A stretch of DNA of 64,000 nucleotides from assembly GCA_027064085.1 (NCBI GenBank), contig JAMOQH010000157.1:706-64705 (forward strand). Direction: 5' to 3'. Each line of letters opens with the position of its first letter. Position 1 is the stretch's first letter. This stretch comes from a bacterium. GTDB taxonomy: Bacteria > UBP6 > JAFGXH01. Position numbers and translations under genes: made by a program. Positions 1,752-64,000 of this stretch are shown piece after piece. The notes below the pieces were generated by a model. That model ran no database searches and was not told where the DNA came from. It saw only the letters and a program-made list of their open reading frames with translations.

Positions 1752-4700
1752 TTAATCAAGCTTTATCATTAAACCATCAATAATTTTATTAAAATAATCC
1801 AATGCTTGTTCTAAATTACTAAACTGACTAGTAATTGTTATATCATTTTTTTGACCAAATTTAATATTTGGATATTTATTTAAAAAAGGCATTAAACTAA
1901 CCAAGTCTAGTAAATCCGGGTCGTCTAAAATCATATAAATTATAGCTCTACTAATAGTTATTTTAGATATTTTATATTTCATTGCTCTGATTTTAATTTT
2001 TACTAAATTTAAAAAGTTAATAAGTTCCTCGGGGAACACTCCAAATCTATCTCTTAATTCTTCAGTAATTTCATCAACTTCTGTATCATCTATTGAGTTT
2101 GAAAGAGATTTATAAAATGATAACCTCGTAAATTCATCTTCAATATAAGAAGCCGGAATAAGAGCAGAAAAGGCGGTATTTAATTCTGTTTTGAAATCAA
2201 CAGAAGACTTCTTATCCCCCTTTAGTTCGGCAAGAGCTTCTTTTAGAAAATTCATATAAGTTTCATAGCCAACTTCATCAACATGTCCTTTTTGAGCAAA
2301 ACCGAGTAGAGTTCCTGCTCCTCTAATTTCCATATCTTGTAAAGCTATTTGAAAACCACTTCCCAAATCAGTATATCTTGAAATAACAGATAACCTTCTT
2401 TCGGCAATAGATGTAATTTTTCCTTTTTTAGGTAACTGTAATATGCAATAACCTTGTCTTTCTGCTCTTCCTACTCTACCCCTAAGCTGATATAAAGATG
2501 CTAATCCAAAATTATCAGCTCTATCAATTATCATAGTATTTGCATTTGGTATATCAATCCCTGATTCAATAATATTTGTAGAAAGTAATAAATCAAATTT
2601 TCCATCATAAAACTCCATCATTAACTTTTCTAGTTTTGATTTAGCTAGCTCTGCATGAGCAATTGCAAGTTTGATATTAGGAAAAAGCTCTAATAAGTAA
2701 TCTGCCTCTTGATAAATTGTAGCTATCCTATTGTGAATATAAAAGACTTGCCCCCCTCTATCTAGTTCAAAGGAAATTGCTTCTTTTAATTTTTTAGGAT
2801 TTTTACGAACAACTATAGTTTTTACTGATTTTCTGTTTTTTGGTGGGGTATTTATTATACTTAAATCCCTAATTCCAGAAAGGGAGAAGTTTAAAGTTCT
2901 AGGAATAGGAGTTGCAGTCATAGCGAGAGTATCTATATTTAGTTTTAATTCTCTTAATTTTTCCTTATCTTTTACTCCAAATTTATGCTCTTCATCTATA
3001 ATTAATAAGCCTAGCGATTTGAAATTAACCATTTTAGCTAAAATAGCCTGAGTACCAATTAAAATATCTATTTTTCCTCTTTTTAACTGTTCAAAAATGA
3101 TTTTTTTATCTTTAACAGACTTAAAACTACTAATAAAATTTATTTCTATAGGAAAATTAGAAAACCTTTTTTTAAATGTCAAATAATGCTGAAACGACAA
3201 AACTGTTGTTGGAGCAAGTATTGCAACTTGCTTGTTATCTGCAACAGCCTTAAATGCTGCTCTCATCGCAACTTCAGTTTTTCCAAATCCAACATCTCCA
3301 CAAACAAGCCTATCCATAGGCTTAATATTTTCCATGTCTCCCATAATTTCATTAATTGTTTTTTCTTGATCTACAGTTAAAATATATGGAAACTCTGAAA
3401 CAAAAGCATCATATAACTCATCATTTTGAGTAAAAGCATAACCTCTTGCAGTCATTCTAGAAGCATATAGTTGAATTAGTTCTTTTGCTATTTTTTCTAT
3501 AGACTTTTTAATTCTTCGTTTTCTATTTTCCCAAGCCTTAGACCTAAAACTATCTAACTTAGTAGTAGTTTCACTAGAGCTATGTTTATAGAGTAATGAC
3601 ATATTATAAACAGGAAGAAATAATTTATCACCCTTTGCGTAATCAATTTCTAAAAAATCAGTAATATTTCCATTTATTGTTTTTGAAGAAATGCCTATAT
3701 ATTTCCCTATACCATAATTAGTATGAACAACAAAATCCCCTTTATTTAAATCAGAAAATGAAGAGATTATATTTTTCATTCTTTTAGTTGATGCTGGAGG
3801 CGAATAAACCCCTAAAATCAAATAATCAGATAAAAATATTTCTTCATTTGTCTGAAAAGCATCTTTTAATAACCCTGTTTTCCAAATAATTCCGCTACTT
3901 AACAAATCAAGTTGATTTAATATTTTTTCTATTTTTTGTTTTCTTTCTTCAACAACATAAAAAATAATAACTTTTTTATCCTGTTTTAAATTATCTTCAA
4001 TTAATTTTGATAACCTAAAATATGTTTTAGGTTCTTGTAAGATTATTCTATAGGGTGAAGTTATTTCTGAATTTAATACTATAGTTTGCTTAGTTCCATC
4101 TTGAATAGGAGATATTTGAAATATTTTTTTACTGTTTTTACTATTATTATCTAAAATTGTTTTTAATGTTTTTAAATCATAATATATTTCACTTTTATTA
4201 ACTTTGTATATTTCATCTATTTCCTGAGCAATATTATTTGTATCGTATAAAAAAATATTTTTATACTTCTTTTTAATTAAGGTAAAAACTGTTGTTGGAT
4301 CTTTATAAAAAAATGGAGCATACTCTATTAATTCTTGACTAATATTTTTTTCTTCAATAAGTGATAATAATTTATCTAATTTATCATAAGAAATTATTTC
4401 ATTTTCAAATTCACTATTTATATATTTTTTAAAATTTTCAATATTGTTATCAGTAAAATCAAAGCGAATTGAAGAAATCAGTTTAAAAGACTTAATTTCT
4501 TCTATTGTTGTTTGAAAATCTGCATCAAAAAACCTGATTGATTCTATTTCATCTCCAAAGAGCTCAATTCTTATTGGATTTTGATAATAAGGAACAAAAA
4601 CATCTATTATTCCACCCTTTATTTGAAAACACCCCTTCTCCTCTACGGGAACCTCATATCTATAACCTAAATCCAATAATTTTCTTCTAAAATTATCTAC

Positions 4701-5063
4701 ATTGATTTCTTGTTCTATTTTAATTTCATCATAATCATTTTTGTTTATTTCTGGTATTTTTTTAAAAAGAGCTTCTAGAGTAATTATTGGTATTGAATTT
4801 TCAACAAATATTTTATAAAGACTAGAAGTTTCCTCTATAAATTTTTCGTAATCAAAAAATTGATTATTTTCTAATATATTTTTATATAAAATATTGCTTT
4901 TTTTCTTTATTTTTAAAAATTCAGCAAATAAATCAATTTCAGTTTTTACTTTTTCAGCTACTTTATTACTAGGAACAATAATCGCAAACTTTTTAATCTC
5001 TTTTATATTTTTTAAAAGATAATAAACAGGAGCAGGATTTAATATTGATTGTATATTTCTCAT
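1752..5063 (-). CDS. mfd: transcription-repair coupling factor Mfd
   Basis: 1103 aa. Superfamily-2 helicase core with Walker A 'CGDVGFGKTEVAMRAAF' and 'LLIIDEEHKFGV', plus 'LAMTATPIPRTL'. A CarD/TRCF-type RNAP-interacting region ('FVVHTNYGIGKY') precedes the helicase, and a TRCF C-terminal domain follows. Confidence 0.9.
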   Translation of the reverse strand: MRNIQSILNPAPVYYLLKNIKEIKKFAIIVPSNKVAEKVKTEIDLFAEFLKIKKKSNILYKNILENNQFFDYEKFIEETSSLYKIFVENSIPIITLEALFKKIPEINKNDYDEIKIEQEINVDNFRRKLLDLGYRYEVPVEEKGCFQIKGGIIDVFVPYYQNPIRIELFGDEIESIRFFDADFQTTIEEIKSFKLISSIRFDFTDNNIENFKKYINSEFENEIISYDKLDKLLSLIEEKNISQELIEYAPFFYKDPTTVFTLIKKKYKNIFLYDTNNIAQEIDEIYKVNKSEIYYDLKTLKTILDNNSKNSKKIFQISPIQDGTKQTIVLNSEITSPYRIILQEPKTYFRLSKLIEDNLKQDKKVIIFYVVEERKQKIEKILNQLDLLSSGIIWKTGLLKDAFQTNEEIFLSDYLILGVYSPPASTKRMKNIISSFSDLNKGDFVVHTNYGIGKYIGISSKTINGNITDFLEIDYAKGDKLFLPVYNMSLLYKHSSSETTTKLDSFRSKAWENRKRRIKKSIEKIAKELIQLYASRMTARGYAFTQNDELYDAFVSEFPYILTVDQEKTINEIMGDMENIKPMDRLVCGDVGFGKTEVAMRAAFKAVADNKQVAILAPTTVLSFQHYLTFKKRFSNFPIEINFISSFKSVKDKKIIFEQLKRGKIDILIGTQAILAKMVNFKSLGLLIIDEEHKFGVKDKEKLRELKLNIDTLAMTATPIPRTLNFSLSGIRDLSIINTPPKNRKSVKTIVVRKNPKKLKEAISFELDRGGQVFYIHNRIATIYQEADYLLELFPNIKLAIAHAELAKSKLEKLMMEFYDGKFDLLLSTNIIESGIDIPNANTMIIDRADNFGLASLYQLRGRVGRAERQGYCILQLPKKGKITSIAERRLSVISRYTDLGSGFQIALQDMEIRGAGTLLGFAQKGHVDEVGYETYMNFLKEALAELKGDKKSSVDFKTELNTAFSALIPASYIEDEFTRLSFYKSLSNSIDDTEVDEITEELRDRFGVFPEELINFLNLVKIKIRAMKYKISKITISRAIIYMILDDPDLLDLVSLMPFLNKYPNIKFGQKNDITITSQFSNLEQALDYFNKIIDGLMIKLD

Positions 5064-5097: not shown

Positions 5098-6084
5098 CTA
5101 TTCTTTTTTAATTTTATTTATTTCTCCTTTTGATAATCCTGTTAATTCCATAATTTTATTAATATCTGTTTTAGTATTTATTAATAATTTCACTAAATTT
5201 ACAATTTGTTTTTTAGCTTTTTCCTCTCTCTCAAGAGCTTTTTCTTTTTCTTTTTGAGCTTTTTCTATCTTTTCTTTAGCTTCTTCAAGACCTTTTTGTA
5301 TCCCTTTGTTTTCAGCTGTGCTTAGTACAGCATACCAATCTCGGTATTCCTTTAAACTTGCTAGATATTTGTTTTGGTCTTTTTTATCCATATTTACAAA
5401 TTCTGCTTTATTAAAAGCATCTTTTATCACTTTATCATCATTAAATATCTTGGGAATTTCATTTAGAGAATCTAAATTATTTAAAAAATAAAACCATTTA
5501 TCCAAATATGTATTTAATTCATTTTCTCTTTTGGTAAATTTAGGCATCTCTACAAATACATAATTTAATTTATCGTAAAATACATCATTATTCTGGTCTT
5601 TTAACTTCACATAATGAAGATAATCTTTATTATTGTTTTCTTTAAACTCAAAATCAAGTATTCCTATACAATAAACAGCACTTAGTTTATAGTCCCAACT
5701 CACCTTTCTTGGACTTCCATCTCTTGTTAATGCAGTTCCATCGTAATATAAGCCTTTTAAACCTTGCTCCTGTATTAAAATACTTGAATAATATACCATT
5801 CTATCTTTAAAATAGGTTTGCTCTGCTCTTTGCAATTCTACAAGTATGTGATTATTGTCTTCGTCAAGGCAGTAAATATCAAAAACGGTATTCCTGTCTC
5901 TTTTGCTTAAACCCAGCTTTTCTAAGTTTTTAAACTCTAAATCAACTATTTTAGCCCTATTTTCAAGCTCCAAAAAAGCATTGATAAAAGATATAAGCTG
6001 TGGTTTACTTCCTTCTTCACCAAATAGTTTTTTAAAACCATAATCTGTGAATGGATTTATATATTTTGATGTTAAACACATCAT
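5098..6084 (-). CDS. Rpn-family recombination-promoting nuclease / PD-(D/E)XK putative transposase
   Basis: The N-terminus 'YINPFTDYGFKKLFGEE' is the hallmark of the Rpn/YhgA-like PD-(D/E)XK 'putative transposase' family. A 'DIYCLDEDNNHILVELQ' nuclease-core-like stretch follows. The tail is a Lys/Glu-rich coiled coil. The gene sits 34 bp upstream of mfd on the same strand. Confidence 0.75.
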   Translation of the reverse strand: MMCLTSKYINPFTDYGFKKLFGEEGSKPQLISFINAFLELENRAKIVDLEFKNLEKLGLSKRDRNTVFDIYCLDEDNNHILVELQRAEQTYFKDRMVYYSSILIQEQGLKGLYYDGTALTRDGSPRKVSWDYKLSAVYCIGILDFEFKENNNKDYLHYVKLKDQNNDVFYDKLNYVFVEMPKFTKRENELNTYLDKWFYFLNNLDSLNEIPKIFNDDKVIKDAFNKAEFVNMDKKDQNKYLASLKEYRDWYAVLSTAENKGIQKGLEEAKEKIEKAQKEKEKALEREEKAKKQIVNLVKLLINTKTDINKIMELTGLSKGEINKIKKE

Positions 6085-21358: not shown

Positions 21359-21904
21359 CTATAAGTTAAAAAAATTATTAACATCATTAATAAACGTTTC
21401 TAATTGATTTGCTATTTTTATAAAATATTCATTTTTTGTATTTCTTTTTATATTACTTGAAAATTCATCAAGCCATGATAAGTACTCTTTATAAAAACTT
21501 TTAGCTTCTTTTTCTAAATCATTTGTTAATAAAAGAGTCATAAATTCCATCATTGTAGGAACAAAATCAGGAAACTGTTCATTTGATAACTCTATTCCGT
21601 ATTCTTCGTATAGATCATATAACTTATTACTATATTCAGATACCACCATACCGGTTTGATATGCAGAGAAATAAGGTGGACATGGTGTTTTAGGGTAACC
21701 TGTAATAAACAAGGAAGTATATTCAGCTTCTAACTCTTCTCTATTGTTATCAAATCCAATTAAAATTTCATTAAAAGTTTTTTGCGTATTCTCTTCTTTA
21801 ATTTGGCTAATAGTTTTTTCAATATCATCTTTCAACTCTTTAGTTGGATATGTTAAAAACTTAGCTAAAACAAAGAATTTTTGTGCTAATATTTCTGTAT
21901 TCAA
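21359..21904 (-). CDS. hypothetical protein, possibly TorD/DmsD/NarJ-like redox-enzyme maturation chaperone
   Basis: 181 aa. 'EYTSLFITGYPKTPCPPYFSAY' resembles the TorD-family 'EYxRLFxGP...PPYESxY' motif. It lies 8 bp upstream of rocD on the same strand. Confidence 0.35.
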   Translation of the reverse strand: MNTEILAQKFFVLAKFLTYPTKELKDDIEKTISQIKEENTQKTFNEILIGFDNNREELEAEYTSLFITGYPKTPCPPYFSAYQTGMVVSEYSNKLYDLYEEYGIELSNEQFPDFVPTMMEFMTLLLTNDLEKEAKSFYKEYLSWLDEFSSNIKRNTKNEYFIKIANQLETFINDVNNFFNL

Positions 21905-24246: not shown

Positions 24247-26550
24247 CTATTTTTCTAGTTTTCTTGCTTTAATTTTAACTGCTCTGTTTGAATCAGTGAA
24301 AATCAAATAGGAGTTACCCTTTTTAATGATTTTCCATATATCTTTGTTTTTTAATTTTCTGTTTTTAAATACTTTTAAAGTATTAGCATTTTTATCAAAA
24401 ATAATTAATCCATCATTTTGAGTACCAAGAAATATTTTATTATTTGAATAATTTAATGCTGTTACAAAATTTCTTTTAATTTTAGAAACATAAAGAATAT
24501 AGGATTTATTTGTATTTCTATCGTATGCCGTTACAATACCTTTATAATGAGCTCTATAAACAACATTATTGGCAGTAATTGTTGCAATTATAGGATGAAT
24601 ACCTTTTGCAACAAATTTACTATCTTGGTCACCATTATACATTCTGAGTCTTAATTGTAATTCTCTGTTTTTATTTAAAAAACCATTATCTCTAACCCAT
24701 AATTGAACAGCATCCTTAGGATCATTCTGAGAAATTTCTCTTGGCTTTTTAACAAATCCAAATTTAAAAATCATTCTTTTAAACCATGGCTTTAAATTGT
24801 TAGGTGTATTTTTTGTAAATTTAAATTCAACTTCAGGATCAAAATCACCAATTGCTTCACCCATTCTAGCATAAGCTGTATAAGTCTTTTTGTTCCCTAC
24901 TGAATATAAATTTAAAAGATTATAAGCTTTTCTTTTATCAACAGTAGTATAATAAATATCCTTTAAATTATCTTTCTGAACATCTTCCATACCATTAAAA
25001 TTCATAGCCATTTTTACTCTTTTAAGCTTTATATTGCTCTTTAAATTAACTCTCCATGAATAATTTTGGTTTACTAAAATATATAATTTTCTTGTTGTAA
25101 TTACAGCAATTTTTATTTGATTATTTTCTTTGTAAACAAAAACATTTACTATAGTTTCATTTCTTCTTAATCTTACATTATTATTAAAAATATTTCTAGC
25201 TTCCTGATTATTTGGCATTTTCACAATAATAGCTTTTTTATAAACTCTTACTTTTGTAACAGAGCTATCATATCTTTCATGTGCACCATTTACAGAAAAG
25301 TTTATATGTGTTGATTTATTGGTTTTTCTTACATCAGATAATCTTAAAGTTTTCATAGCACCTTTATAAGTTAATTTCCAAGTGCCATTTCTGTATCTTT
25401 CATGAGCTGCAATATAATTTACAGGACCATATACTTGTTGAAATATAATTTCGTATCCCTTAAAGTCATTTATGGAAATACCACAGTAGTTTCCACCAGT
25501 TCGGTATCCACCTTTTCCATTTGTAGTGATATCACACAAATAAATGTAGCTTCCACCAAGCATTGGCTTATCTTCTTTTGGTGCTTGAACAATGACAGTA
25601 TCATTAATTCCTAGTTTTTTTTTCATCCATTTATGAAATTTACCATTAATTTTTAAATTTCCTGATTTTGTTAAGCTACCATTAGTTTTTTTCATTAATA
25701 AATAGAAACTATATTTTCCTTGCTTAGGTTTTGTATTTACAACAGATAAAACTTTATTGCCTGCATTATTTTTTACCATATAGTAAAAATCACCAAATCC
25801 ATTTCCTTTAACATCATACATACCTACACTATTTAAAATAAGTTGATATCTATTTTTTAATTTTTTATTAAAAAACTTTTTGTATGAGTTACCATTATTT
25901 AAAAATAAATATGCTTTTGAAGATGTTAATGCAAATAAGAATTTACTTCCATTTTGATTTGTATAAAAACCTGCTCTTAATACTTTTCCATCAACTAATC
26001 CTTCAGCTATTTTAACTGCATTTGGTTTAACTAATTGTAAAGGAGGTCTTTTAGATGTTTTATTTACAACATTAACATTTTGATTTAAATGTTTAACTTT
26101 ATTTGTCATCCATTTATGAAATTTTCCATTGACTTGTAAGTTTCCAGATTTAACAACAGAGCCATTATTTCTTAAGGCCACTATATAAAAACTATATTTT
26201 CCTTTTTTGGGTCTTGTATTAACAACATATAGTGTTTTTTTATTATTAGATTTTGTTGCATACCATAAATCTAAAGAACCATTTTTATCTATATCGGTAA
26301 GGCCTGCAGATCTAAACAATGGTGTTTCAGTATTTTTAAAAGTTTTTGCAAAAAACTTATTAAAATTAGAACCGTGTTTAATGAATAAGTAGGCTCCACT
26401 AGAAGTAATTGCAAATAGCTTTTGACTTCCATCACTTGCATAAGAAGCAGCTAGAACTTTACCATTTGTTAAGTTTTTAGCTTGATTCATAGCATTATTA
26501 CCAAGAATTGTTAAGCTAAACATCAACATAAACAACAATAATTTACTCAT
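24247..26550 (-). CDS. large secreted protein with internal tandem duplication, hypothetical
   Basis: 767 aa with a signal peptide. Two ~145-aa direct repeats, e.g. '...LYVVNTRPKKGKYSFYIVALRNNGSVVKSGNLQVNGKFHKWMTNK' versus '...LSVVNTKPKQGKYSFYLLMKKTNGSLTKSGNLKINGKFHKWMKKK'. The C-terminal half carries beta-propeller-like repeats. Confidence 0.5.
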   Translation of the reverse strand: MSKLLLFMLMFSLTILGNNAMNQAKNLTNGKVLAASYASDGSQKLFAITSSGAYLFIKHGSNFNKFFAKTFKNTETPLFRSAGLTDIDKNGSLDLWYATKSNNKKTLYVVNTRPKKGKYSFYIVALRNNGSVVKSGNLQVNGKFHKWMTNKVKHLNQNVNVVNKTSKRPPLQLVKPNAVKIAEGLVDGKVLRAGFYTNQNGSKFLFALTSSKAYLFLNNGNSYKKFFNKKLKNRYQLILNSVGMYDVKGNGFGDFYYMVKNNAGNKVLSVVNTKPKQGKYSFYLLMKKTNGSLTKSGNLKINGKFHKWMKKKLGINDTVIVQAPKEDKPMLGGSYIYLCDITTNGKGGYRTGGNYCGISINDFKGYEIIFQQVYGPVNYIAAHERYRNGTWKLTYKGAMKTLRLSDVRKTNKSTHINFSVNGAHERYDSSVTKVRVYKKAIIVKMPNNQEARNIFNNNVRLRRNETIVNVFVYKENNQIKIAVITTRKLYILVNQNYSWRVNLKSNIKLKRVKMAMNFNGMEDVQKDNLKDIYYTTVDKRKAYNLLNLYSVGNKKTYTAYARMGEAIGDFDPEVEFKFTKNTPNNLKPWFKRMIFKFGFVKKPREISQNDPKDAVQLWVRDNGFLNKNRELQLRLRMYNGDQDSKFVAKGIHPIIATITANNVVYRAHYKGIVTAYDRNTNKSYILYVSKIKRNFVTALNYSNNKIFLGTQNDGLIIFDKNANTLKVFKNRKLKNKDIWKIIKKGNSYLIFTDSNRAVKIKARKLEK

Positions 26551-31691: not shown

Positions 31692-33329
31692 TTAAGGGCG
31701 AGGTCTGCAATATTTACTAGGATATGGATAAGAAGTATTTTCATAACAATAAAAATTACTACTATAGCAATCACTATCCGTTTCGCAAGTATCCATCCAA
31801 TACATCATCCAAGAATCATTTACATTCATACCTACACACATAACTTCATTAGGATAAGTTGTATTATCAAGAGCTCCTTGCTGAGGACAATCACTTGCCA
31901 CACATATATTGTAATGTTCAAAAGCCATACATGTTCCATTTTGATAATCACAATCAAAATCTGAATTACACTCTATACCAACTGGTTTCAATGAGCTATC
32001 ATATTTACAGTAACCTAAATCATCCCAGTTATTAACAGAAATACACCTGTTGTATTCCTCACATTTAGAATTATTAATATTACCTTCACTTGGCTTGCAA
32101 GCAGGCTCACACCTTTTGGTCGTTTCTGAATTATTATCGTGATCAACACAAATACTACCTTGTAAACAAAGATTATTTTTATTACACAATCTTCCATTTT
32201 CTAAAGTACCTGTTACAGCACAAGCATTATAACTAATTTCATCAAAAGGATAACATGATTTTCCCACTTCTGAACAAGAATTATCAGAGAACATATCACA
32301 GTTTATGTCTTGAGTAACACATAAACCACTATTATTGTCACAAATTTGATAATCTTTACACTCACTATCACTTAAACATTTAGGCCTACATAATTTATCA
32401 TTATTACAAGTAAAATCACTTCTGCAATCTAAAATATTATTACAAGCTTGTAAACAGTATTTACCACTTAAATAATCACCACATTTATAATCATTACAAA
32501 CACTATCATCTGTACATCTTTTAGTACAATAACCATTTTCTATACCGTTTAAAAGACAAATCATATCACTAGGACACTGACTTTGTGTATTACACATAGA
32601 CCCCATAGTAGGAGGCGGTGTACATGCTCCATCTATACACAGATAACCATCTATATCACATATACCAGTAGGATGCTCTGCACTGCATTTGTCAAGTTCA
32701 ACAATACATAATTCACCGGTTTCATCTTTTTTAAATCCTTGTTTACAATCCCATTCACATTTTGTTGTTTCTTCCCAGGCATCATTTACCCAGTTAATTT
32801 CAAACTGGGTAACAATGATTTCTCCATTTTCAGGAATAGTTATATGCCTATCACATTGAACAAGTTTTGTATTTTCCTTACAATTATCATTTTCACAATG
32901 TTGTGTATCTGTGCATTCTATATTACCACATAACTCAAGGCCATCTTTAACACAATTTAAACCAACAGGATGATAGCCACTTGTACAAATACAAATAGCT
33001 TTATCAAAATCATTTAAATCACATGTTCCATTACCACTACAATCAACAGAATTACATTTAGCTTCCTTTAGAGTTTTACAAACTCCATCATAGCATTCCT
33101 TATCTTTTTCTCTGCAATAGCCAAATTTATTTGTTTCAGAACATTCCAAATCGACTTTTTCACATTTATTTTTAACACATTCATACCCTTCAAGACACTT
33201 AACAGAGTCATCACAATAAGCCTTACTTGCTGTTGAAGCAGCACATGATGATAATAATAAAAAGATAAATATTATTATATAGTGGAAATTATTCCTGATT
33301 ATATTACCTAAATTCATAAAAATACCCAA
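31692..33329 (-). CDS. secreted cysteine-rich repeat protein (EGF-like / myxobacterial-type Cys-rich repeats)
   Basis: 545 aa with a signal peptide. Many Cys residues (on the order of 70 by eye) fall in recurring C-x-C-x(n)-C-x-G-x-C units, e.g. 'CEKVDLECSETNKFGYCREKDKECYDGVCK', 'CNSVDCSGNGTCDLNDFDKAICICTSGYHPVGLNC'. Confidence 0.6.
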   Translation of the reverse strand: MGIFMNLGNIIRNNFHYIIIFIFLLLSSCAASTASKAYCDDSVKCLEGYECVKNKCEKVDLECSETNKFGYCREKDKECYDGVCKTLKEAKCNSVDCSGNGTCDLNDFDKAICICTSGYHPVGLNCVKDGLELCGNIECTDTQHCENDNCKENTKLVQCDRHITIPENGEIIVTQFEINWVNDAWEETTKCEWDCKQGFKKDETGELCIVELDKCSAEHPTGICDIDGYLCIDGACTPPPTMGSMCNTQSQCPSDMICLLNGIENGYCTKRCTDDSVCNDYKCGDYLSGKYCLQACNNILDCRSDFTCNNDKLCRPKCLSDSECKDYQICDNNSGLCVTQDINCDMFSDNSCSEVGKSCYPFDEISYNACAVTGTLENGRLCNKNNLCLQGSICVDHDNNSETTKRCEPACKPSEGNINNSKCEEYNRCISVNNWDDLGYCKYDSSLKPVGIECNSDFDCDYQNGTCMAFEHYNICVASDCPQQGALDNTTYPNEVMCVGMNVNDSWMMYWMDTCETDSDCYSSNFYCYENTSYPYPSKYCRPRP

Positions 33330-61278: not shown

Positions 61279-61518
61279 TTATGATTCACTGTTTTCATTT
61301 AATTGTTTGTTTGATTCAGAGGTTGCCAATACTTTTTTTTCTTCACTTTCTTCTTTTTTATCATCATCGGTAACACCTTTTTTAAATTCTTTTATACCTT
61401 TACCAAAACCACCCATTAATTTAGGGATTTTACTTCCTCCAAAAATAACTAAAACGATAAATAGAACTATTAGTAATTCTGGTGTTGAGGGCATTGCAAG
61501 TAATATATTTTGATTCAT
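61279..61518 (-). CDS. tatA: twin-arginine translocase subunit TatA/E
   Basis: '[36 protein letters not shown]' is the TatA TM-hinge-amphipathic-helix signature. 79 aa with an acidic tail. Confidence 0.8.
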
Positions 61519-61581: not shown

Positions 61582-63156
61582 CTACTGTTCAATATAATCT
61601 TCTTCTACTAGTTTGTCTAAAATAGCATAGGTTTCTTCTTCTGATAGTTCTGTATTTTCTATAATTTCAGATATAGAACTGAAGTTATGAACAAGTTGTA
61701 AAACTTTGAGTTCATTTTTATTTAGCTCATCAAGAGGACTAAAAAGTGGCAACGGAAGAATATATTCATCATCCAAAGGAAATTTTTCTTTTAACTCGTC
61801 TATATTTATTTCTGTTTTATTTTCTTCTTCAACTAAGTCACTACTTACTGCATTTGAATTTTCTTCACTAAGTTTATTAGGTAAACTATCATGTTCTGAA
61901 ATAATTTCCTTAGGCACATCATCTAAATCATCAAGAGCAAAATCATTATCGTCATCGTCTAAATCATCAAGGTTGAAGTCATCATTTTTAGGCTTTGCTG
62001 TTTTTTGAGCATCGTCATCTAAATCATCAAGAGCAAAATCATTATCGTCATCGTCTAAATCATCAAGGTTGAAGTCATCATTTTTAGGCTTTGCTGTTTT
62101 TTGAGCATCGTCATCTAAATCATCAAGAGCAAAATCATCATCGTCATCTTCTAAATCATCAAGGTTGAAGTCATCATTTTTAGGCTTTGCTGTTTCTTGA
62201 GCATCGTCATCTAAATCATCAAGAGCAAAATCATCATCGTCATCTTCTAAATCATCAAGGTTGAAGTCATCATTTTTAGGCTTTGCTGTTTCTTGAGCAT
62301 CGTCATCTAAGTCATCAAGAGCAAAATCATCATCTTCTAAATCATCAAGAGCGAAGATATCATCTTCAGCATCTATGTTTTCATCGTTAAAGTCGTCTAA
62401 GCTAAGAATGTCCTCCGAATCGTCAACATTAACACTTATTTCATCAAAACTATCTAGCATTAAATCATCGTCATCTTCTTCTAATTCAAAGTCTAGGTCA
62501 TCTAAACCAACTTCATCTTCGTACTTTGCAGCTTCAAGGAGGAATGCATCTAAACTAATATTTAATCTATTTCCAAAATCACTAGGATCTTTTTGTTCAA
62601 ATTCAAAAAAACCAGAATCAAGCTTTATGAGCTTGATAAGTATTTTCTTAGGTTCTGCATTACTACTAGTCATAATAATATCTTTAAAGATTCCTTGAAC
62701 TAATTGTATTTCAGCAGAAATAGAACCTGAAGTTATTCTTAAAACTCCTGTTTTTTTACTAGTTGCAAGTAATTGTAATACTTCTGGAATTGGAATATCC
62801 TCAATTGAGCCTGATACTGCATTTGTTCCAATTTTAGCCGCATCTTCCATATTTTGTCCAGTGTCATCACTATCTATAAACTTGGCAATAGATGTTCCAA
62901 TTAATATTCTATCATTAAGCTTAAGCTTAATTTTTTTTATTCTATTACCGTTTACAAAGGTTCCATTGGTAGAGCCCATGTCTTCAAGTATTATATCACT
63001 TCCTGATATACTTATTTTTGCATGTTTTCTTGATACCATATCTTCAGAGAGAACCATTTCTAAATCACTGTGACGCCCAATAACAATTACATTTTTGTCT
63101 AATGGAAATTCACCACCTTTATATTTACCCGAAATAAACTTAAACATTAAAGCCAT
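61582..63156 (-). CDS. FHA-domain + DUF4388-domain protein with long acidic tandem-repeat tail
   Basis: N-terminal FHA 'VIGRHSDLEMVLSEDMVSRKHAKISISGSDIILEDMGSTNGTFVNGNRI'. DUF4388-like 'IPIPEVLQLLATSKKTGVLRITSGSISAEIQLVQG'. About 230 aa of D/E-rich sequence follow, built from a repeated 32-aa unit 'FALDDLDDDAQETAKPKNDDFNLDDLEDDDDD'. Confidence 0.75.
   Translation of the reverse strand: MALMFKFISGKYKGGEFPLDKNVIVIGRHSDLEMVLSEDMVSRKHAKISISGSDIILEDMGSTNGTFVNGNRIKKIKLKLNDRILIGTSIAKFIDSDDTGQNMEDAAKIGTNAVSGSIEDIPIPEVLQLLATSKKTGVLRITSGSISAEIQLVQGIFKDIIMTSSNAEPKKILIKLIKLDSGFFEFEQKDPSDFGNRLNISLDAFLLEAAKYEDEVGLDDLDFELEEDDDDLMLDSFDEISVNVDDSEDILSLDDFNDENIDAEDDIFALDDLEDDDFALDDLDDDAQETAKPKNDDFNLDDLEDDDDDFALDDLDDDAQETAKPKNDDFNLDDLEDDDDDFALDDLDDDAQKTAKPKNDDFNLDDLDDDDNDFALDDLDDDAQKTAKPKNDDFNLDDLDDDDNDFALDDLDDVPKEIISEHDSLPNKLSEENSNAVSSDLVEEENKTEINIDELKEKFPLDDEYILPLPLFSPLDELNKNELKVLQLVHNFSSISEIIENTELSEEETYAILDKLVEEDYIEQ
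61921..62340. repeat. 96-bp direct tandem repeat array (about 4.4 copies) inside the FHA protein gene
   Basis: Unit 'atctaaatcatcaagagcaaaatcattatcgtcatcgtctaaatcatcaaggttgaagtcatcatttttaggctttgctgttttttgagcatcgtc' at 61921-62016. An identical copy at 62017-62112. Copies at 62113-62208 and 62209-62304 are identical to each other and differ from the first pair at 3 positions. A diverged partial copy follows. The repeat is in frame (32 codons). Confidence 0.9.
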
Positions 63157-63326: not shown

Positions 63327-64000
63327 TTGTCGAATTTAACAAAAAGAATACTTTCGGCCATTGTTGGCCTAGCATTTGTTGTGGCAGTTTTAGTTTATGG
63401 TGAAGCATGGTTATGGAAACTTTTAATTTTACATTTAACGATGCTTGGATTAAATGAATTTTTTAAAAATATGGTTACAAATAGGTATCCTAAATACAGT
63501 GATTTAAAGTGGATTTCCATTTTTCTAGGAGGTTCAATCGCTTCTGTAATATTGTTTTATCCGAAATTTTTAGTAATCCTACCTACTGTTTTTCTTTTGG
63601 TTGTGGCTTTATACTTTTTGTTCAATTTTAAAGATATGGAAACAGTTATTGAAAGAATGGGGTATTTAGTTTTAGGAATTATTTATATCGCATTTACTTT
63701 GCCATACATTGGGGTTATTGTTGATTTTCCTATAAGTTCTATTAATGGTAAATATTTATTAATTTTAGTTTTTGCAATAACATGGGGTAATGATACTTTT
63801 GCTTATACTTTTGGTAGGCTTTTTGGTAAACACAAGCTATATGAGAAAATGTCTCCAAATAAAACAATTGAGGGGGCTATTGGTGGTTTGTTAGGTGGAA
63901 CAGGCCTTGCAATTTTAGTTAAAATATTCTTGTTAAAGGATTTATCTTATTCTGATATTTTACTAGTTGCTCTTTTTGCTGGTGCTTTTGGACAAATGGG
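63327..64000 (+). CDS. cdsA: phosphatidate cytidylyltransferase CdsA (3' end cut by window edge)
   Basis: TTG start after AGGAG. Multi-TM protein. The CdsA signature 'SPNKTIEGAIGG' is in frame near the window end. Absent from the ORF track because there is no stop before nt 64000. Confidence 0.75.
   Translation, partial: MSNLTKRILSAIVGLAFVVAVLVYGEAWLWKLLILHLTMLGLNEFFKNMVTNRYPKYSDLKWISIFLGGSIASVILFYPKFLVILPTVFLLVVALYFLFNFKDMETVIERMGYLVLGIIYIAFTLPYIGVIVDFPISSINGKYLLILVFAITWGNDTFAYTFGRLFGKHKLYEKMSPNKTIEGAIGGLLGGTGLAILVKIFLLKDLSYSDILLVALFAGAFGQM

Follow-up and report, generated by a model that had tools for sequence, protein, structure and literature searches.

A 96-bp tandem array encodes a motif-bearing, disordered acidic insert of variable length in an FHA-PATAN protein of an uncultured bacterial lineage

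We analyzed a 64,000-nucleotide stretch of bacterial DNA (positions 706 to 64,705 of contig JAMOQH010000157.1, hereafter the window) in which a minus-strand gene encodes a 524-residue protein with an FHA domain, a DUF4388 domain (PF14332, now named PatA_N; here PATAN) and a conserved C-terminal helical domain. The acidic region of this protein, described as a tail in an earlier note made from the sequence alone, is an insert between PATAN and the C-terminal domain, and it contains a 96-bp tandem array that encodes short FxLDDL-type motifs. Comparison of the arrays of relatives showed that they lengthen and shorten by whole in-frame units, through unequal recombination or slippage during replication, and that the units are homogenized within each lineage. 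By analogy with known bacterial scaffolds, we favor, with some reservation, a reading in which the adaptor recognizes phosphothreonine and the insert serves it as a multivalent linker of short motifs whose length can evolve. Repeat-built acidic disordered regions are already known in bacterial scaffolds; this one occurs in a very large, uncharacterized FHA-PATAN family and in an uncultured lineage.

Tandem Repeats Finder reported the array at positions 61919-62334 with a period of 96 bp, 4.3 copies, 98% matches, zero indels and a score of 783, and no other array in the window scored 80 or more. The result agrees with the earlier note, which had placed a 32-codon in-frame repeat of about 4.4 copies at 61921-62340 and had described copies 1 and 2, and likewise copies 3 and 4, as 100% identical, with 3 nt separating the pairs; the same relations were recovered in the register that starts at 61921. 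In the coding register, units u3 and u4 (Table 1) are identical and u1 differs from u2 at a single synonymous site. The three differences between the unit pairs are all non-synonymous (E>K, E>D and D>N), and the unit translates as FALDDLDDD-AQ(E/K)TAKPKNDD-FNLDDL(E/D)DDD(D/N)D. The 96-bp periodicity ends sharply at ~61910 and ~62230+96, and the AABB order of the units indicates an in-place duplication of each unit type. Upstream of the array there are degenerate copies of the motif, among them a remnant with a 30-bp period at 62298-62367, and a leader homologous to these copies was found in two relatives (L001 and L004, described below). Two plus-strand open reading frames (ORFs) at 61706-62008 and 62375-62698 (100 and 107 aa) were rejected as genes, being Ser-rich antisense mirror images of the GAT/GAC runs.

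The insert (aa 219-446, 228 residues) contains 104 Asp or Glu residues (46%), 12 Lys and no Arg. Its net charge is about -92, or -0.40 per residue, and it lies deep in the disordered part of the charge-hydropathy plot; the wider stretch aa 216-466 carries a net charge of -96. In an AlphaFold2 model built with a 63-sequence alignment, residues 220-446 had a predicted local distance difference test (pLDDT) score below 50 and no secondary structure. The motif F/L-x-L-D-D-L/F occurs 13 times in aa 216-466, 12 of them within the insert, and nowhere else in the 64-kb window in any frame. The acidic and disordered character proposed in the earlier note was therefore borne out, but the proposed position was not: because a conserved folded C-terminal domain follows, also in short homologues from Myxococcota, the acidic region is a linker and not a tail. 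The insert replaces the ~20-residue linker of those short homologues.

Both signaling domains named in the earlier note were recovered above the curated Pfam cut-offs. The FHA profile (PF00498) matched residues 24-87 (E=6e-19, 68.6 bits against a cut-off of 20.7), and the Yop-YscD_cpl profile also matched this region (E=4e-20). The phosphothreonine-binding residues G27, R28, S42, R43, H45 and N64 are canonical and invariant in the 63-sequence alignment, and AlphaFold2 modeled residues 1-98 as a confident beta-sandwich. Foldseek results for the full model were mostly FHA matches, the best being the GarA, OdhI and DgcB FHA structures (E ~1e-9, target TM-score 0.84-0.92). PF14332 matched residues 115-215 (E=2.8e-14, 53.6 bits against a cut-off of 25) over profile positions 1-120 of 122, and the PATAN fold was confident over residues 112-218 (pLDDT 80-92). 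The C-terminal domain (78 residues) had a pLDDT of 86-96, with helices at 480-492, 495-501 and 506-518, and it is conserved in the Myxococcota homologues, in which L/Q positions are invariant. It looks like a winged helix at a sub-threshold level only: its best match among PDB profiles was the MarR-type 7dvn (E=0.26), and the Pfam families HTH_24, TrmB and DnaD_N matched at E=0.004-0.02, all under their cut-offs. With its net charge of -15 this domain is acidic too, and we consider a DNA-binding role unlikely. Foldseek, run on a second model from which FHA was left out, found no PDB structure below E=0.1 for PATAN plus the C-terminal domain. Hydropathy gave no transmembrane segment in the 524-aa protein (the highest Kyte-Doolittle value over 19 residues is 0.93), which also lacks a twin-arginine (RR) motif and a hydrophobic N-terminus and is therefore cytoplasmic.

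A search with residues 1-227 returned 6,610 homologues, of which the best 120 all have FHA and DUF4388; these range from 253 to 397 aa, with nearly all at 300-330 aa, and Myxococcota, Polyangiaceae and Myxococcus are frequent labels among them. The short homologues (~310 aa; more than 6,000, mostly of Myxococcota), such as P0101 ('FHA domain-containing protein', Myxococcus landrumensis, 311 aa), have the same three folded domains in the same order. The third element, which follows PATAN and comprises ~60 residues, has the consensus PLxxPLRDLxPEELDVLQLVxNxG...DLET...L.KxxY and corresponds to residues 447-524 of the window protein. The Myxococcota short proteins are 42-48% identical to the window protein over FHA plus PATAN and share with it the invariant FHA phosphothreonine-binding, PATAN and C-terminal L/Q positions; they differ in having ~20 residues and no insert where the window protein has its 228-residue acidic repeat region. 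Acidic motif repeats were present in only three of the best 120 homologues (P0001, P0002 and P0003, which are 87%, 79% and 63% identical to the window protein). Four further loci, L004, L005, L006 and L007 (74-87% identical), came from a metagenome scan and have full-length proteins of 569, 587, 598 and 540 aa, respectively. No exact-sequence record was found for the window protein, and the GTDB species genomes yielded no close relatives, only two distant FHA matches. As judged from these sequences, the insert is limited to a small, deep-branching, low-GC uncultured clade.

Every full-length protein of the clade carries a tandem array, with a period of 93-111 bp, 2.8-6.9 copies and a within-array identity of 76% to 94%, compared with 98% in the window. 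The arrays have 3-7 units, each laid out as F-(A/S/D)-L-D-D-L, an acidic and Lys/Pro-rich spacer, F-(N/D)-(L/F)-D-D-L and a short acidic spacer, with the long Lys-rich and short acidic spacers alternating throughout the clade and with 10-17 FxLDDL-type motifs per full-length protein. The six-residue motif is nearly invariant, while the spacers and the copy number drift. Unit DNA identity within a protein was 0.97 in the window, 0.95 in L004 and 0.95 in L007, compared with 0.66-0.78 between proteins, and the nearest neighbor of a unit lay in the same protein for 20 of the 25 units. The window units are only 69-78% identical to those of relatives, in keeping with the recent expansion or concerted evolution that the earlier note had proposed. 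Alignments of relatives need 0-4 gap columns in the folded domains and 45-219 in the insert. The likeness of units within a protein, together with the few gaps in the domains and the many in the insert, is what marks arrays that expand, contract and homogenize lineage by lineage while the motif stays constant. On/off phase variation by frame or promoter repeats was excluded because all units are multiples of three (the 96-bp unit is 32 codons, and the units of relatives, 78-114 bp long, are all in frame); length alone can vary. The gene of P0002 (L014:133-1476) stops inside the acidic region at 359 aa, lacks the C-terminal domain and is directly followed by a nucleotidyltransferase-like ORF; either P0002 is a genuine truncated variant with an 'acidic tail', or its 1.5-kb contig is chimeric.

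The copy-number variation anticipated in the earlier note was found among the relatives, and it separates one near-identical pair. The flanks of L001 (an ENA contig encoding P0001, 383 aa) and L004 (a JGI contig, 569 aa) are 99.93% identical over 6.9 kb and 100% identical over 5.3 kb, and between L001:10001-11152 and L004:6001-7710 there is a single clean in-frame 558-bp indel, exactly six units, whose breakpoints share 61 nt. The L001 allele has 5 motif copies. Either very closely related strains are truly polymorphic in copy number here, or the repeats collapsed in one of the two assemblies.

We consider very unlikely an assembly artefact in which repeat collapse or duplication would have produced the array or, failing that, its copy number and the difference between 383 and 569 aa. 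Units u3 and u4 share all 96 bp, so the count of such units is probably a lower bound in a short-read assembly, and k-mers shorter than ~137 nt would not fix it. The contig of P0003 (NCBI GCA_016936735.1, L013:4254-5185) ends inside its array, which shows that such arrays break short-read assemblies, and L001, which has a megahit-style name (k141_...), equals L004 minus six units with the shared 61-nt junction. The sole other record of the region, a Logan contig (SRR7968125) with tatA and the genes downstream of it, starts 57 bp upstream of tatA and falls short of the array. However, arrays of the same architecture were found in five independent assemblies, from different samples and species, so the existence of the array is not in doubt although the exact copy numbers are. 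An artefact is also at odds with the AABB order of the in-frame window array and its unit-specific substitutions, and with the 5 differing flanking positions, which mark L001 and L004 as distinct populations. The main rival is instead near-neutral low-complexity expansion, in which slippage-prone GAT/GAC-rich DNA in a tolerant linker gains and loses acidic units that have no specific function. The wider family has no insert, the allele of L001 is six units short but otherwise near-identical to L004, unit number and spacer sequence are highly variable, and the units of the window arose so recently (97-100% identity) that their likeness is uninformative on selection, all of which such expansion would accommodate. 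It would not readily explain why the motif and the long-basic/short-acidic layout are kept in independently homogenized arrays of proteins whose folded domains are only 72-87% identical, or why the motif array recurs in the partial protein P0003 at 63% identity. The spacers diverge freely but the motif does not, the old units of L005 and L006 (77% identical) have intact motifs, and the insert was retained in all seven clade members seen. We therefore treat neutral expansion as possible but unlikely.

The charge and composition of the insert would also suit a polyanion, that is, a high-capacity, low-affinity Ca2+/Mg2+ or polyamine buffer or a nucleic-acid mimic, as opposed to a docking array. 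The strictly conserved elements, however, are hydrophobic F and L positions that are superfluous for charge-only roles, the Lys-rich spacer layout is conserved, and the region is fused to two signaling domains, not set in a storage or anti-restriction context; we regard such a role as highly improbable. No more credible is a regulator that gates or positions the twin-arginine translocase, a connection hinted at in the earlier note on the ground that the next gene is tatA. The next gene is indeed tatA (TIGR01411, 63.2 bits against a cut-off of 53.9). Both genes are on the minus strand, and the 63 bp that separate them contain no terminator-like site; a promoter-like site at 61574-61546 was not above chance frequency in the promoter/terminator scan of this AT-rich DNA. 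The gene order with tatA, DUF4159 and GATase1-like genes is kept in L001, L004 and L006, but such conservation in close relatives is expected from descent alone. There is no tatA downstream of the gene in the clade member L007 (74% identity), and the contig of P0003 has ExbB/ExbD-like genes upstream, with neither cdsA nor tatA there. The same absence was noted beside the gene in four Myxococcota-type loci, two of which have BamD/YfiO and TPR genes upstream. In the window, no tatB or tatC ORF adjoins tatA, and the FHA-PATAN protein itself, besides lacking a transmembrane segment and an RR motif, had no Tat-family matches in Pfam or NCBIfam and no twin-arginine signal peptide. The tatA adjacency thus amounts to shallow synteny and not to a conserved association.

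In this clade, a long, disordered, acidic two-motif array has taken the place of the short linker between PATAN and the C-terminal domain. In the multivalent-linker reading that we favor, the FHA domain, as judged from its family, would dock on a phosphothreonine-marked partner, and PATAN might engage a motor or polarity component, as it does with PilB and PilC in Synechocystis. The anatomy of the array, in which conserved F and L positions sit among acidic residues and Lys-rich patches, suggests that the FxLDDL motifs would act as repeated short linear docking sites or 'stickers', with 'DDFNLDDLEDDDDDFALDDLDDD' as the candidate docking-motif peptide. How many partners the adaptor binds and how far it reaches would then depend on copy number, and the array might recruit several client copies or serve as an electrostatic, entropic spacer. 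The idea of a tunable scaffold, already raised in the earlier note, may reasonably be inferred from these features. That unit gain and loss tunes the valency of a phosphothreonine-regulated FHA-PATAN hub, and hence client number or condensation at a motility or polarity machine, is a further step that we find quite doubtful. The spacer Thr (one per unit) was rejected as an FHA ligand, as it is not conserved in L004 or L007.

Several observations weigh against the linker reading. Every copy number derives from short-read metagenome assemblies. More than 6,000 homologues work without the insert, and since the L001 allele, if real, has only its 5 motif copies, the array may be dispensable. The FxLDDL motif matches no testable short linear motif; resemblances to the VP16-type acidic activation motif, the paxillin LD and FFAT motifs and the clathrin box were considered and not adopted, as their hydrophobic spacing differs. 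When the array (aa 262-445) was searched with phmmer against 1.84 billion representatives, no more than 4 marginal matches resulted (E 4e-6 to 2e-4), so that a binding module gained no independent family-level support; the search missed even the clade members, which indicates that it is insensitive for such biased sequence. Literature searches, which also covered Myxococcus and SgnC, found no published work on the FHA+DUF4388 or FHA+PATAN architecture, and no partner, localization or phenotype is known for any member of the family. The literature on the FHA proteins of the Myxococcus Kil system does not describe them as PATAN proteins.

The closest parallels to the acidic insert are mechanistic. 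HubP has unstructured cytoplasmic acidic imperfect repeats whose composition, length and number vary between closely related species, and HubP/FimV proteins are hubs that capture client proteins and are linked to type IV pili and chemotaxis (PMC12918733). The window protein resembles HubP (Vibrio, Shewanella) and FimV in its acidic, repeat-bearing, unstructured cytoplasmic region. These proteins, however, span the membrane, with a LysM domain in the periplasm and a FimV TPR domain at the C-terminus; Pfam and hydropathy showed neither of these domains and no transmembrane segment in the window protein, and their repeats have no sequence homology to the window repeats; the likeness is one of mechanism and not of membership. 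The PopZ linker of Caulobacter is likewise a disordered, acidic, proline-rich segment between modules, with a net charge per residue of -0.28 compared with -0.40 here, and its length and charge tune scaffold behavior (PMC9512792). Unlike the window insert, to which it has no homology, it is conserved in length, is not made of tandem repeats and carries no hydrophobic motif array.

The folded part can also be compared with the PatA-type PATAN-REC regulators (PixE, PixG and PatA), which share the PATAN/DUF4388 domain. In Synechocystis, PATAN serves as the output domain: it binds PilB1 as well as PilC, and by itself it suffices to switch phototaxis (10.1101/2021.06.11.447907); binding of PilB/PilC by the window protein would be an argument from analogy. 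The input of these regulators is a receiver domain, whereas that of the window protein is an FHA domain at the N-terminus, so that the order is reversed. The window protein had no Response_reg (REC) match, its C-terminus being the three-helix domain, and it has this domain and the acidic array beyond what the PatA-type regulators contain. GarA, OdhI and the Bdellovibrio DgcB resemble the window protein in the FHA domain, but the rest of their architecture is unrelated, and the NCBIfam equivalog scores were far below cut-off (OdhI 49.9 against 200, FhaB 71.5 against 125). Only the FHA-like part of the type III secretion proteins SctD/YscD matched (TIGR02500, 21.5 bits against a cut-off of 86), and the window protein lacks a transmembrane segment.

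This locus offers a compact natural series, with constant folded domains and motif, 3-7 units and one possibly strain-level pair with 0 versus 6 extra units. The series could test whether valency or linker length tunes a signaling scaffold. If unit number does tune the valency of an FHA-PATAN hub, this would be the cytoplasmic equivalent of a variation in repeat number that is well known from surface proteins, and it would give a first functional handle on more than 6,000 uncharacterized FHA-PATAN proteins. The locus also points to a widespread, unstudied family of FHA-PATAN-helical-domain proteins in Myxococcota and relatives. The practical impact is modest, as the organism is uncultured and no phenotype is attached. 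Acidic F-S-L-x-D-L motif arrays similar to the window insert were seen in two unrelated proteins. P0244 has an Hsp70 substrate-binding-domain fragment, ~15 copies of 'DDFSLPDLDDNTE(S/T)GE', a LysM domain and a hydrophobic segment that is transmembrane-like by eye, and in P0242 numerous 'EPELTPFSLEDLGLSPEEIA' repeats occur together with TPR repeats and sigma-70 region 1.1; the likeness may be convergent, with other scaffolds having come to use this kind of motif.

Table 1. Features of the FHA-PATAN gene and its immediate neighbors, in window coordinates
Feature	Position	Strand	Basis
Whole gene: FHA - PATAN - acidic repeat insert - C-terminal helical domain protein, 524 aa	61582-63156	-	ORF list, Pfam
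FHA domain, aa 1-98	62863-63156	-	Pfam, AlphaFold2, Foldseek, alignment
DUF4388 / PatA_N (PATAN) domain, aa 115-215	62512-62814	-	Pfam PF14332, AlphaFold2
Older degenerate motif copies VGLDDL, LSLDDF, FALDDL, aa 216-277	62326-62511	-	Motif count
Disordered acidic insert, aa 219-446	61819-62502	-	AlphaFold2, composition, motif count
96-bp tandem array: four complete 32-codon units plus a 24-nt partial fifth (61918-61941)	61918-62325	-	Tandem Repeats Finder, unit comparison
Array unit u1	62230-62325	-	Coding register
Array unit u2	62134-62229	-	Coding register
Array unit u3	62038-62133	-	Coding register
Array unit u4	61942-62037	-	Coding register
C-terminal domain, aa 447-524: PLPLFSPL segment and three-helix bundle	61585-61818	-	AlphaFold2, Myxococcota homologues
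tatA, 79 aa, 63 bp downstream of the FHA-PATAN gene	61279-61518	-	TIGR01411
cdsA-like gene (CTP_transf_1), divergent, runs off the window	63327-64000	+	Pfam E=7e-32

The window is ordinary chromosome with 26% GC, and its genes include mfd, rpoN, glgB, aroA, folP and ispD as well as genes for an MCP and a PilZ protein. The window Mfd (1752-5063, minus strand) has metagenomic relatives at 100, 87, 80 and 60% identity, the remainder, from many phyla, being at most ~47% identical, and this pattern, together with the GC content, places the organism in a deep-branching uncultured lineage. For the 100% identical Mfd (P0121), an exact-sequence look-up yielded no contig. The lineage had no match in the scan of GTDB species representatives. 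Next to the FHA-PATAN gene, the divergent arrangement of the cdsA-like gene was also seen in L001, and tatA is followed by a DUF4159 gene and then a GATase1-like gene. Rfam and tRNA scans recovered nothing within or near the gene.

Genes for DUF4159 and GATase1-like proteins often accompany Bat/VWA clusters. In the Myxococcota-type loci L008:3753-5995 and L010:1-5973, BamD/YfiO-like and TPR genes immediately precede the gene of the short homologue, and in L010 they come after a Bat-like operon (VWA, BatD, SH3). There may be a loose recurring association of FHA-PATAN genes with Bat/VWA-type neighbors.

Two further minus-strand ORFs of the window, at 24247-26550 (767 aa) and 31692-33329 (545 aa), had no Pfam match at E<=1e-5. 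A gene for a TorD/NarJ-type chaperone (Nitrate_red_del) is present at 21359-21904 (minus strand), 40 kb from the lone tatA; this chaperone family serves Tat substrates. Amid the housekeeping genes there is also an ORF of a PD-(D/E)XK 'transposase' family at 5098-6084 (minus strand; PDDEXK_2, E=3e-60).

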